From NCBI GenBank assembly GCA_963664875.1, contig OY761611.1, positions 2,816,001-2,880,000 of the forward strand: 64,000 bases of DNA. The letters are read 5' to 3'. Made by a program: the position numbers. Numbering within the stretch: position 1 is the stretch's first letter; each line of letters starts with the position of its first letter. This document shows, in pieces, positions 21,001-24,000 of this stretch. Origin of the DNA: Candidatus Kapaibacterium sp. (GTDB lineage Bacteria > Bacteroidota > Ignavibacteria > Kapaibacteriales > UBA2268).

Positions 21001-24000
21001 AATAATCCGAAATAATATGAAAAACTCAGAATTTGAATTAAATTCAAACGGAGCTAATAAAGAAGGAGCAATCGCAGCTTGGACGCAGCAATTACAAGCA
21101 GGATGCAAACACAGACCTGTTTCTTCTCTCATCCGGACTATAACCGTCGGTATCGGATTTTCACCGATTCAATGGTGCTGTCTCATTCGTTTAGTTTTGA
21201 AGATATTTTGCAGGTTTGTATTTATTATCTAATTTCGGTGAGCTAAGCTCATTTTCTAAGATGAATATTATTACTGCCGCTTCTTTGTTGTAAGTTCGGC
21301 ATGTGTTTTCTGCTTTTTAAGTCAATATCTTCTGTCTATTTGATTTGTACATGAGACAGCCCCGGTCGCGGACTTTAACCGCCGGTGGGGAATTGCACCC
21401 CGCCCCGAAGAATATATGTAATTTATACTTTTTTATTGAAAAATAAAAAGCTCAAAAATATTTTGAGCTGAGTATAAACTAAAAAAAAGCCTTGAATCGA
21501 AATTCAAGACTTTGGTAAGTGTACACCCGAAAGGATTCGAACCTTTAACCTTCTGATCCGTAGTCAGATACTCTATCCAGTTGAGCTACGGGTGCAACCT
21601 TGTCAATTTTTTAAGCAGTCTTCAAAGAATCTACAAATTTTTGTAGAGAAGACTTGCGGTTAGCAGCAGTATTTTTATGGATGATACCTTTGCAGCTAAC
21701 TCTGTCTAACAAACGTGTAGCAAGTCTGAATTTTTCGAAAGCTTCTTCGTATGTAGCAGCTTCACGAACAGCTTTGATAGCATTCTTAACTAATTTCTTG
21801 TTAAGTCTGTTATAAAGTTTGCGTTTTCTCGTTTGTCTAATTCTTTTAATCGCTGATTTGTGATGAGCCATGTCGTCTTCTGTATTTTAAACTTTAAAAA
21901 TCAATCACTGTTTTTAAGAATCACAAATTTATACAATTTTTTGCATTCCTGCAAAATATTTTTTCTCAAATTGTCAAATATTGAATTCTTATTGCTATCG
22001 ATTGCGTTTCGATTAGCAGACAAATATAAGGAAGAATCGATAATATGCAAAAAACTTTTTTCGATGTACGCAATCCAAAGAAAAGAATCTTGCTTATAGT
22101 CTGATATTGTTTATTTTTGTTATAATAATGTAAATACCTTCTACGTTTCCAAAACATCATTTGCACAAAAGAAGGGGGCAAAAATGCTTAAAGAACTCTT
22201 GAAGCCGGAAATATTGGAACTCATTGCAAACAGAGACTGGAATAATCTAAAAGATGTTCTGATTACCTGGCCTGCTCCCGAGATTGCTGACTTACTTTTA
22301 GACTTAGACAAGACTGATAGAGTATTTATTTTCAGGTCTCTCCCGCGAGACTTTTCTGCTGACATTTTTTCGTACTTAGAATACGAACAAAGAGACAGTT
22401 TACTGCATGACCTTACTGACCATGAAACACGACTGTTGCTCGCTGATTTGTCTCCTGACGATAGGACGGAGCTATTAGAAGAGTTGCCTGCCAAGGTTAC
22501 ACGGCGAATGCTTAATCTACTTTCCCCGGAAGATTTGATAGAAGCAAGGCAGCTGCTTGGCTACCCCGAAGATAGTATCGGACGTCAAATGACTCCTGAT
22601 TTTGTAGCGGTTCGACCGGACTGGACTGTCAGAGATGCACTAAACCATATAAGGCAATTTGGAAAAGATAGTGAGACTATTTACAGAATATATGTTACTG
22701 ATAAAGATGGTAAGCTTTTAGATGATATTTTGCTTAGGTCATTTATTGTTTCAAATGAAAACCAAAAAGTATCTTCCCTTATGGACTACAATGTGGTAAG
22801 TGTTTCGGCTTTCGAGGATCAGGAAGAGGCTGTAAGGAAAATGGAAAAATATGACCTTTTTGCTATTCCGGTTGTAGATTCTGTCGGGATGCTTGTAGGT
22901 ATAATAACATTCGATGATGTTCTTGATATTTCCGAAGAAGAAGCTACCGAAGATATTCAAAAACTTTCTGCGATTAACCCTGTTGAACAGTCTTATTTAA
23001 ACGTAAATCCAATTAAATATTGGTCTAAGAGATTGCCTTGGCTCATCACCCTGTTAGTTGCAAACGTAATCACTGCTTCAGCGATGCAGAACTATAATGT
23101 TGTCATTGCGAAAGTAGCTCTTCTCTCGAATTTTATTCCTCTTATATTAGGAACAGCCGGAAATTCCGGTTCGCAATCTTCAGTTCTTGTTGTAAGAGCT
23201 TTAGCATTAGATGATATCAAACTCAAAGATTGGCTTAAAATTGTAAAAAAAGAAGTAGTTGTTGGGGTTTTACTTTCGAGCATTTTGGGCTTGATTAGCT
23301 TTGCGATAGCACTGTTTATTCAATATATAGATTCCAATGCTATTGCCGGTATGATGAGTATCAGAGTGGCATCTGTGGTTAGTTTGTCTTTATTTATTAT
23401 GATAATTTGGTCATGCACAATTGGGAGTGTTTTACCTCTTTTATTCAAACGAATTGGTTTTGACCCCGCGGTTATTTCAAATCCGTTTATCACAACTATT
23501 ACTGATATATCGGGTATTATTATTTATTTTAGCATTGCAGTCTGGCTCTTAGGGGATTTAATAAATGCAGTGCCATAAGGCAAGCACGAGTTTTTTTCCT
23601 GATAATCAAAAAGTAAGTTCTAAAAGCAGTTTCTGGCAGCTAATCTCCGGATACTGCTTTTAGTATAATATTAGCACATTCTTTTGCTGCAAATGGTCTG
23701 CCGAGAGTTCTTGCTCTGCTCGACATATTAGCAAGTTTAGTATCGTCATTAATCAAAGACATCAAAGCTGAGAAAAGTTTATCGCCGACTTCTTTATCAT
23801 TTAGCATTATAGCGGCATTGTTTTCCATCAACGCTTTGGCATTATGAGCCTGTTCGTTGTTCGAAGCAGTTGAGAGAGGTACCAAAATAGAAGGTTTACC
23901 AATTGCAGCAATTTCTGCAACAGTTGTGCCGCCTGATCGGCATACTAGCAAATCAGAAGCTGAGTATGCTATATTCATATCATCAACAAACTCAACTACT

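Follow-up and report, generated by a model that had tools for sequence, protein, structure and literature searches.

The gene ribB of Candidatus Kapaibacterium sp. is preceded by an FMN aptamer that is recognized as two separate halves. This raises the question of whether the riboswitch still works, and of what the DNA that separates the halves may be. The locus was studied in a window of 64,000 nucleotides (contig OY761611.1, positions 2,816,001 to 2,880,000; all positions below are those of the window) and was compared with the remainder of the genome (G000), with four congeners (G001 to G004) and with metagenome contigs.

The aptamer upstream of ribB is interrupted at P4

The gene itself is unproblematic. 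The assignment of its product to DHBP_synthase, which had been made in a preliminary description of this DNA, was obtained again (Table 1), and the closest public loci share 81-83% identity with ribB. The aptamer lies 118 nt upstream on the minus strand, in the 5' leader of this riboflavin synthesis gene. Searching with Rfam yielded two half-matches to RF00050, of 42.6 and 45.6 bits, and no single hit to this aptamer reached the gathering cut-off of 66.2 bits. Each of the four congeners gave one full match (114.3-117.9 bits). In an alignment with these four the break sits exactly at P4: the congeners read GCGAC-TCTCTT..loop..AGAGAC-TGAATCGG in this region, and G000 reads GCGAC-C-GGGGCTGTCTCAT...ATGAGACAGCACC-AT-TGAATCGG. 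At the equivalent place the aptamer is uninterrupted in 4/4 congeners, which thus represent the empty site. The preliminary description had claimed both an interruption at P4 by a 184-nt element and an uninterrupted aptamer in the congeners, and on both points it was right. The portion of the 5' half-match that extends beyond 21364 is a spurious match within the insert.

Outside P4 the sensor is intact. All helix pairs are retained in the alignment with the 4 congeners (P1 6 bp, P2 6/6, P3 4/4, P5 5/5 and P6 3/3), and the upper-case, i.e. strongly conserved, consensus positions of RF00050 outside P4 are all matched across the two halves. The aptamer thus falls below the cut-off because of the 190-nt insertion and not because of mismatches in the core and, as the remainder of the sensor is intact, it may still work. 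A base-paired P4 that closes the P3-P5 junction is present as well, in the form of a terminal inverted repeat with 12/13 pairs. Compared with the congeners there are two extra unpaired nucleotides on each side of the P4 base (CC and AU), and L2 reads UGCAA instead of UGAAA or CGAAA.

These deviations, and the sub-threshold score of the aptamer as a single unit, would fit a dead relic: the insertion would have abolished sensing, the leader, lacking a stabilized P1, would be ON by default or ribB would start inside the insert, and ribB would be an unregulated accessory copy next to halves that have not yet decayed. Since G000 encodes a further DHBP synthase, loss of the switch or constitutive expression of ribB could be tolerated. 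The intactness of the strongly conserved core positions and of every helix but P4 speaks against such a relic, which we consider less likely than not, though by no means far-fetched.

Table 1. Features of the ribB leader and its surroundings in the window
Feature	Position	Strand	Evidence or remark
ribB, 3,4-dihydroxy-2-butanone 4-phosphate synthase, 214 aa, intact	20354..20998	-	PF00926 (DHBP_synthase) 2.3e-79
AU-rich hairpin followed by U run, weak terminator-like	21020..21055	-	Read from sequence; present in leader folds
Pyrimidine tract CUCCUUCUUU, candidate anti-P1 (switching) strand	21059..21068	-	Pairs with P1 3' purine strand in unconstrained fold
FMN aptamer 3' half: J4/5, P5, P6, J6/1, P1 3' strand	21117..21173	-	RF00050 half-match 21117-21208, 45.6 bits
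P1 3' strand GAAGAA	21121-21126	-	Within aptamer 3' half
Insert in place of P4, 190 nt, AT-rich unique interior	21174..21363	-	Absent from 4/4 congeners
Right TIR = RNA-3' arm AUGAGACAGCACC, P4 3' strand	21174..21186	-	10-nt core ATGAGACAGC = family end
Inner helices of insert: GAAGAUAUU (21324-21332) with AAUAUCUUC (21199-21207), plus GCAG/CUGC	21199..21332	-	MFE, P 0.97-0.99
Left TIR = RNA-5' arm GGGGCUGUCUCAU, P4 5' strand	21351..21363	-	13 nt identical to family-member ends
FMN aptamer 5' half: P1 5' strand, P2, P3, J3/4	21364..21416	-	RF00050 half-match 21304-21416, 42.6 bits
P1 5' strand UUCUUC	21407-21412	-	Within aptamer 5' half
Two terminator-like hairpins (21486-21513 and 21449-21469)	21449..21513	-	Terminator scan; downstream of tRNA, upstream of switch
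tRNA gene, anticodon loop reads ACG (Arg)	21522..21595	-	Rfam tRNA, 66.9 bits; upstream of switch

On its 5' side the ribB transcription unit is bounded by the two terminator-like hairpins listed in Table 1.

The insert carries paired ends and a unique interior

Measured from core to core the insert comprises 184 nt (21177-21360), and 190 nt when the full 13-position terminal stem is included; it is small and noncoding. On re-alignment its left and right arms paired at 12/13 positions where P4 belongs, the same count as given before. In the MFE fold the inner helices turn the insert into one long imperfect hairpin, and folded alone it reached -41.3 kcal/mol (z -2.7 versus a shuffled interior).

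As had already been noted, the interior has no second copy in G000, where the longest other match was 16-20 nt at E >= 0.14. No copy was found in 30 relatives either, and an exact 25-mer of the interior had 0 matches in metagenome contigs, a search from which near-identical records may be absent. At the ribB site neither a target-site duplication nor a remnant of the native P4 stem was found. The 13-mer GCTGTCTCATTCG recurs at two other sites in G000, which lie in ORF starts, have no inverted partner and were judged uninformative.

Contigs from three metagenome studies span both insert junctions, so the insert is not an assembly artefact but is present in wild populations. One of them (X6 record 20) covers 21111-21600 with 5 differences. 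Joints that skip the insert were considered as empty-site alleles of this species; they had short arms of low similarity, or 21 different letters between the arms, and are read as FMN aptamers of other organisms.

The ends resemble those of a family of short repeats

In G000 GGCTGTCTCAT occurs 13+13 times on the two strands, where 0.4 is expected per strand and the reversed control gave 1+1; GGGGCTGTCTCAT occurs 4 times versus ~0 expected. The consensus end of the family is GAGGCTGTCTCATAAGTC. The left end of the insert matches 12/13 of its first positions, and 13/13 those of a GGGG variant that occurs in family members; the right end matches the 10-nt core of a GAGGCTGTCTCATAAGTC-type end. 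At neither end are the five sub-terminal positions (AAGTC) matched, so that 10-13 of the 18 TIR positions agree.

Besides the insert, 22 inverted end pairs were found in G000, spaced 185-341 bp; the 'eight other elements' with the same ends reported previously were an undercount. End counts depend on the pattern that is used. With GGCTGTCTCATAAGT at <=1 mismatch they amount to 45, 10, 3, 1 and 41 in G000 to G004, and the earlier figures of 16, 21, 3, 2 and 0 shifted accordingly, whereas the reversed control remained at 0. Two repeat families, of ~195 and ~262 bp, were distinguished as well, at 82-99% identity. Across 23 end pairs in G000 no consistent target duplication of 2-10 bp was detected; 4-bp repeats flanked 4/52 metagenome elements, versus 0.67 in the control. 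In metagenomes the 18-nt end is widespread and is associated with many unrelated interiors. The interiors of 58 metagenome elements with this end fell into 35 clusters, 27 of which were singletons in that sample, and elements with this end range in size from 90 to 355. Given these singletons, an interior that has no second copy is nothing unusual among such elements. An Rfam search of nine loci with family elements gave nothing relevant, and in full-text literature the end motif was met in unrelated primer sequences only.

Alternatively, the insert may never have been mobile: P4 could have been expanded in this lineage, or patched by recombination, its stem resembling the family ends by chance. 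Even the native P4 arms, UCUCUU/AAGAGA, are similar to UCUCAU/AUGAGA (shared TCTC.T/A.GAGA), and the lack of AAGTC, the interior that is unique in G000 and 30 relatives, and the missing target duplication at the site (with none consistent in the family) point the same way. Chance is hard to reconcile, however, with ends that are identical over 13 and 10 nt to a motif seen 26 times where 0.8 is expected, an observation in support of the claim that they match a genuine short TIR family. Moreover, the left-arm 13-mer occurs just 4 times in 3.8 Mb and the remaining 3 occurrences are family ends. The insert of 184-190 nt fits the family range of 185-341, and unrelated interiors are usual among metagenome elements with this end. 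FMN aptamers elsewhere are compact: those of the 4 congeners measure 128-136 nt and those of 8 other members of the phylum 143-155 nt (128-155 nt in 12 genomes). An origin without a mobile element is consequently regarded as improbable, and transposition as the likelier origin.

IS3 parentage of the repeats is not supported

It had been proposed that the family derives from an IS3-type element of G004. The IS in question does belong to the IS3 family (NF033516, 226.8 bits), and the reported distribution of its OrfB was found again: it has 9 copies, all identical, in G004 and 0 in G000. At two G004 loci GGCTGTCTCATAAGT ends lie inverted ~1.6 kb apart around the IS, which, like the absence of OrfB from G000, would be expected if the insert were an orphan derivative of this element and the ends were recognized by its transposase. 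The element has, however, ends of its own. Identity of >=99.9% among the nine copies is confined to the stretch from GGTCTAATCC... to ...GGCAATGACC (GGTC...GACC), ends that differ from those of the repeats (GGCTGTCTCA), and 8/9 copies have a direct target repeat of 3 bp. The GGCTGTCTCA ends are found 30-230 nt beyond the IS, in flanks that are ~85% alike, and in two copies (L010 and L011) the IS, itself 100% identical, has opposite orientations relative to these flanks. This indicates that the repeats surround a nested IS and do not form its boundaries. A family end is found within ~230 nt of just 4/9 copies. A related IS3-type element in G001 (1309 bp) is not bounded by the motif.

An unrelated element of the IS1182 family is nested likewise in the same kind of repeat.

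The proposed IS3 parentage, against which this second nested element also counts, is therefore hardly credible. No autonomous transposase partner for the repeats was found. Three of the G000 end pairs that are 1.8-5.7 kb apart were checked; between them lie housekeeping genes, among them those of an ABC ATPase, MlaE and a histidine kinase, and no transposase. At 22 metagenome loci without a near partner end the adjoining long frames, which were not run against Pfam, are those of host genes that extend into the repeat; in three the frame closes with ...TYETA, the translation of the repeat itself.

The interrupted aptamer is predicted to fold

The MFE structure of the 298-nt aptamer contains P1, P2, P3, a long P4 and P5, in agreement with the fold described before, and the 10-bp core of P4 has a pairing probability of 0.99. 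In the MFE structure P6 is exchanged for a CCGGG/UCCGG pairing that involves the left end of the insert. A native-like fold that includes P6 lies 1.3 kcal/mol above the MFE, versus 0.8 for the intact aptamer of G004. In prefix folds the P1-5' region forms a transient helix with the left end of the insert. This competition for the P6 3' strand and the transient mispairing are what a dead switch might show, but a native fold within 1.3 kcal/mol of the MFE argues against it. A sigma-70-like site inside the insert (21294-21267) could likewise serve a ribB that escapes control, though with 3 such sites against 2.3 expected after shuffling there is no excess of them. The terminator scan detected no terminator-like site on the sense strand within the insert.

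Between aptamer and gene, each of the 5 genomes is predicted to pair a pyrimidine tract of the CUCCUUCUUU kind with the 3' purine strand of P1, and modelling makes this tract a candidate for the anti-P1 switching strand. The AU-rich hairpin that follows was not flagged by the consensus terminator scan, which demands 3 G-C pairs. At the start codon, leader thermodynamics distinguished the bound from the free state in G000 (0.37 to 0.14) but in none of the four congeners, so that this modelling is not relied upon.

Variation in metagenome contigs falls mostly outside the core and the terminal stem

Among the metagenome contigs 7 variable sites were found in the 158-nt interior of the insert and 5 in the 118-nt leader, versus 1 in the 142 nt of aptamer halves and terminal stems. 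This sole variant of the core region occupies an L3 position that is also variable among congeners; the terminal stem is free of variants. The distribution has a one-sided Fisher p of 0.03, which is marginal, and the regions were set once the data were known. A ratio of 12 variable sites in interior and leader to 1 in core and stems would not be expected of a relic, nor would a terminal stem that still pairs at 12/13 positions next to an insert that has itself decayed beyond recognition.

A decayed repeat as the proposed P4 of the ribB riboswitch

Whether the locus is a genuine ribB FMN riboswitch, the peripheral P4 of which is now a 190-nt hairpin derived from a mobile repeat, appears to us evenly poised. 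On the reading preferred here, the insert is an old, decayed MITE whose TIR would serve as P4 of a switch that probably still works. According to this model a short TIR element of the GAGGCTGTCTCATAAGTC family would have inserted into the P4-encoding DNA. The native 6-bp P4 stem would have been lost, and the six-way junction would instead be closed by the TIR of the element (12/13 pairs). The element would since have decayed, its inner TIR half and interior matching no other copy, for which reason it is probably immobile. The ligand pocket (P2-P6, P3-P5 and the junctions) would assemble from halves that lie 190 nt apart. P4 of the FMN aptamer has no conserved nucleotides and makes no tertiary contacts (PMC3764141), so the pocket may still be able to assemble; pairing of P4 is nonetheless required (PMC3458559). 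Binding of FMN would stabilize P1 (UUCUUC/GAAGAA), and P1 thus stabilized would withhold its purine strand from the pyrimidine tract CUCCUUCUUU. As a result ribB would be turned down, either by way of the AU-rich hairpin and U run or because the start region is masked, which corresponds to a presumed OFF logic.

A wider version of this model is put forward tentatively, and we take it to be less likely than not: the decayed repeat would have been domesticated as P4 of a working sensor, and elements with the 18-nt end would tend to land in hairpin-encoding DNA (riboswitch stems, terminator-like palindromes), where their own inverted repeat would replace the stem of the host.

Relation to known systems

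With the canonical RF00050/RFN element the G000 aptamer shares the six-helix junction, the strongly conserved core nucleotides, the L2/L6 and L3/L5 hairpins and the position in the leader of a riboflavin gene. It differs in that P4 of the other aptamers examined is a short hairpin, whereas that of G000 measures ~190 nt and therefore causes the Rfam model to yield two sub-threshold halves. The literature searched yielded no instance of an aptamer that harbours a repeat; the nearest were a repeat in a T-box leader and a speculation in a review on MITEs. The former is the BOX repeat in the trp leader of Streptococcus pneumoniae, which is located between two T-box riboswitches where the authors judged regulation to persist (PMC3049150). 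It is a non-autonomous repeat that is co-transcribed in a riboswitch leader, as the insert presumably is, but it lies between two complete riboswitches, whereas the insert interrupts one aptamer, to which it would contribute a helix. In the accessible part of the review (PMC10969869) the formation of riboswitches or terminators by MITEs is a speculation, and that part gives no case of a MITE in an aptamer. The mRNA hairpins formed by bacterial MITEs in the same text resemble the insert, which would also be a short TIR element transcribed in an mRNA as a stable hairpin. The insert is unlike them in having no recognizable target duplication or known transposase.

The nested IS of G004 has relatives of a different kind. 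The IS3-family elements IS1397 and ISKpn1 target palindromic repeats (REP/BIME). As with these, the G004 IS is an IS3-family element that lies inside short palindromic repeats in either orientation, with 4/9 copies near a family end; the likeness concerns this nested IS and not the ribB insert.

A working switch would show, in a natural setting, that an FMN aptamer can assemble from halves 190 nt apart, and that a riboswitch can take up a transposable repeat as one of its helices instead of being broken by it. P4 would then be a possible insertion port for riboswitch engineering, and the locus would bear on how mobile repeats shape regulatory RNAs. Should elements with the 18-nt end indeed favour hairpin DNA, structured RNAs could be remodelled without being destroyed. 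A dead switch would make the locus no more than an ordinary leader insertion. For annotation the lesson is that split switches of this type are missed by covariance-model pipelines, because each half scores under the cut-off.

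Location of the insert within the FMN aptamer of ribB

The Rfam FMN model (RF00050, cut-off 66.2 bits) matched the aptamer of this genome (G000) as two halves, both below threshold. Each of four congeners (G001-G004) gave a single full-length match of 114.3-117.9 bits, and a search of 26 more distant relatives gave no match. When the five aptamers were aligned they were collinear everywhere but at P4, where the congeners read GCGAC-TCTCTT-loop-AAGAGAC-TGAATCGG and G000 reads GCGAC-C-GGGGCTGTCTCAT...(164 nt)...ATGAGACAGCACC-AT-TGAATCGG. The insert thus occupies the position of P4. 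A preliminary description had reported an aptamer split at P4 by an orphan MITE from a family derived from an IS3-type element. Its coordinates and numbers for the split and the insert were correct, as was its account of family-type ends around an orphan interior, but the IS3-type parent did not hold (see below). The congener aptamers measure 128-136 nt. Of 150 further genomes in the phylum 8 have an FMN aptamer, of 143-155 nt; among the 13 seen only that of G000 is split, the others being compact.

Features of the ribB riboswitch locus and sites that vary among contigs (window positions)
Feature	Position	Strand	Length	Remarks
ribB	20354-20998	minus	214 aa	intact ORF downstream of the aptamer; DHBP_synthase match 2.3e-79
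AU-rich hairpin and U run	21020-21055	minus		after the pyrimidine tract
Pyrimidine tract CUCCUUCUUU	21059-21068	minus		pairs with the 3' (purine) strand of P1 when folded without constraints
FMN aptamer, 3' half	21117-21208	minus		RF00050 match 45.6 bits; real part P5, P6, P1-3'
Insert with full terminal stem	21174-21363	minus	190 nt	stem pairs at 12 of 13 positions
Insert between 10-nt cores	21177-21360	minus	184 nt
FMN aptamer, 5' half	21304-21416	minus		RF00050 match 42.6 bits; real part P1-5', P2, P3
Two terminator-like hairpins and a tRNA gene		minus		upstream of the aptamer
Variable sites, insert interior	21230, 21242, 21256, 21266, 21280, 21294, 21319		158 nt	7 sites
Variable sites, leader	21054, 21069, 21073, 21098, 21110		118 nt	5 sites
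Variable sites, two aptamer halves and terminal stems	21375		142 nt	1 site

The insert is no assembly artefact, since contigs from public runs match the window across it. A 2931-nt contig of the culture-type run X2 was identical over 20800-21407. One or both junctions were crossed, with few differences, by contigs in three metagenomes from different studies, i.e. X6 record 20 (21111-21600, 5 differences), X10 record 2 (21128-21355, 7 differences) and X7 records 25 and 26 (20998-21239 and 21256-21407). The single variable site in the aptamer halves and terminal stems is an L3 position that differs among the congeners too. The distribution of variable sites in these species-level contigs gave a one-sided Fisher p of 0.03, a weak test given the few sites, uneven coverage and regions picked after the data had been seen. 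This suggests that the core and the terminal stem have still been under constraint since the insertion.

Relation of the insert to a class of terminal inverted repeat elements

The motif GGCTGTCTCAT occurred 13+13 times in G000 against 0.4 expected per strand (reversed control 1+1), and the 13-mer GGGGCTGTCTCAT four times, namely in the riboswitch and at three repeat ends. Site listing and self-BLAST revealed at least two repeat families in G000, each with GAGGCTGTCTCATAAGTC at one end and its complement at the other: one of ~195 bp (13 copies examined, 83-99% identity) and one of ~262 bp (7 copies examined). Under relaxed criteria, 23 pairs of inverted ends with a spacing of 185-341 bp were found, among them the riboswitch insert (186 bp). 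With at most one mismatch, GGCTGTCTCATAAGT was found 45, 10, 3, 1 and 41 times in G000-G004 (reversed pattern 0). The insert has the sequence of the family over 13 nt at its RNA-5' end and 10 nt at its 3' end, and is without the inner AAGTC of the family consensus. No other copy of its interior was present in G000, and none in 30 relatives.

At least 118 stretches of metagenome DNA, from a wide range of habitats, contain the exact 18-nt end GAGGCTGTCTCATAAGTC, which is unusually conserved for a non-autonomous repeat class. Among the matches listed (L044-L123), 58 of 80 loci had an inverted partner 88-355 nt away. The interiors of these 58 elements made up 35 clusters, of which 27 were singletons; interiors in this class are mostly unrelated, and a unique one is therefore no argument against membership of the insert. 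No Rfam family matched class elements at the nine loci searched.

The flanks of 8 of 52 listed elements were perfectly complementary over 7 nt (permuted flanks: mean 1.6, maximum 5), and 4 of the 52 had 4-bp direct repeats against 0.67 in the control. Several metagenome elements have an A run immediately on one side and a T run on the other, as if their own stem had replaced that of a bidirectional terminator. Some elements of the class are therefore located in hairpin-encoding DNA, which would fit a landing in the P4 hairpin. Some elements (L072, L103, L111, L114 and others) occupy the loop of a host hairpin and are accompanied by a direct repeat of 4 bp, for example CCCTCTCC-TTGG-[element]-TTGG-GGAGAGGG.

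In G000, copies of the class are found on contig C1 at, e.g., 3688889-3689083 and 3218943-3219204. Next to many of them stand two additional conserved sequences (...TATCTTGTTTCTTGG and TCTTCAATGATTCAATATGTAAGT...), which are parts of different repeat modules, ~125 nt long; the genome contains a mosaic of nested short repeats, densest around C1:3.2-3.7 Mb. The 13-mer GCTGTCTCATTCG, the right end of the insert plus three bases, also occurs within ORF starts at C1:2654019 and C1:3464976; neither site has an inverted partner, and these may be chance occurrences or relics.

The IS3-family element of G004 is nested in the repeats

The proposed parent, an IS of G004, encodes an OrfA/OrfB pair. Its OrfB has rve domains and reaches 226.8 bits with the IS3-family model (cut-off 160); as described, G004 has nine copies of it, whereas G000 lacks it. 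The near-identical unit (≥99.9%) of these copies, however, is 1375-1383 bp long, from GGTCTAATCC... to ...GGCAATGACC, with its own inverted repeats of ~25 nt; 8 of 9 copies show a direct target repeat of 3 bp. Outside this unit, at a distance of 30-230 nt, come the GGCTGTCTCA ends, in flanks only ~85% alike, and a family end is nearby in just 4 of 9 copies. Comparison of loci L010 and L011 shows opposite orientations of the IS with respect to the repeat flanks. This indicates that the IS is nested in the repeats and is not their parent. An unrelated IS1182-family element (384 bits) is nested likewise in the same kind of repeat, and the 1309-bp IS3-type element of G001 likewise lacks the motif at its ends.

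At G004 loci L010-L018, L022, L023 and L026, the IS3-family IS (nine copies) and the IS1182-family IS (two copies) were each found inside class repeats, each IS lying in opposite orientation in two copies; L010 and L011 share an identical CAA target of the former. This suggests that such repeats are preferred landing sites for IS. No autonomous partner was found among long end pairs in G000 and the metagenome loci: the three long G000 pairs checked enclosed housekeeping genes and no transposase, and the long frames adjoining unpaired metagenome ends, on which no Pfam scan was run, were host genes reading into the repeat.

Integrity of the sensor and expression platform

All strongly conserved (upper-case) RF00050 positions outside P4 were matched in the two half alignments, and the five-way alignment showed that G000 has kept P1 (6 bp), P2 (6/6), P3 (4/4), P5 (5/5) and P6 (3/3). 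The minimum free energy structure of the 298-nt aptamer (-75.9 kcal/mol) includes P1, P2, P3, P5 and a long P4, in which the 10-bp core and an inner 9-bp helix form with a probability of 0.99. Forcing P6 costs 1.3 kcal/mol, as compared with 0.8 in the intact G004 aptamer. Folded alone, the insert is a long imperfect hairpin (-41.3 kcal/mol, z -2.7), and its sense strand has no terminator-like site. A passage in PMC3764141 describes the P4 stem-loop as devoid of conserved nucleotides and tertiary interactions, and one in PMC3458559 reports that P4-destabilising mutations weaken a Streptomyces FMN switch. What the fold requires is therefore base pairing at P4, whatever its sequence, and this the inverted repeat provides.

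Four features argue against a functional sensor. The base of P4 has two additional unpaired nucleotides on either side; L2 at 21395 (minus) has an A-to-C difference and is UGCAA, versus UGAAA in three congeners and CGAAA in one, the T-loop-like motif being given as UGAAA in a passage of PMC3764141; CCGGG of the insert competes for the P6 3' strand in the minimum free energy structure; and in prefix folds the P1-5' region forms a transient helix with the left end of the insert. The main rival explanation, possible but doubtful to us, is that the switch is disabled and its gene an accessory one. The riboswitch-controlled ribB is an extra copy, because a second DHBP synthase domain is encoded outside the window (C1:986380-986955) in a 403-aa frame, probably of the fused RibBA type. 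To the reading that an old, decayed inverted repeat now forms P4 of a probably functional, predicted FMN switch we assign about an even chance.

P1 is separated from the ribB start codon by 118 nt, and an analogous pyrimidine tract pairs the P1 3' strand in all five genomes. In the modelled bound state the accessibility of the G000 start codon fell from 0.37 to 0.14; that of the congeners was unchanged. Purely by analogy, a classical OFF logic might be proposed for this switch.

Full-text literature searches, their coverage excluding most subscription journals, turned up no repeat within an aptamer. According to a passage of PMC3049150, a BOX repeat separates two T-box riboswitches of the pneumococcal trp leader, and regulation seemed to persist; the nearest other item was a speculative sentence in a MITE review (PMC10969869).

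Within its taxonomic family the riboswitch with a stand-alone ribB was found in this genus alone (4 of 4 congeners versus 0 of 14 other genera searched). The RibB proteins of two near relatives are 81-83% identical; next come that of a Mucispirillum MAG (55%) and those of Clostridium, other Clostridia and a Virgibacillus (43-48%). This restriction, the 8 of 150 occurrences in the phylum sample and the nearest outsiders in Mucispirillum and Firmicutes hint that the riboswitch-ribB unit was acquired horizontally.
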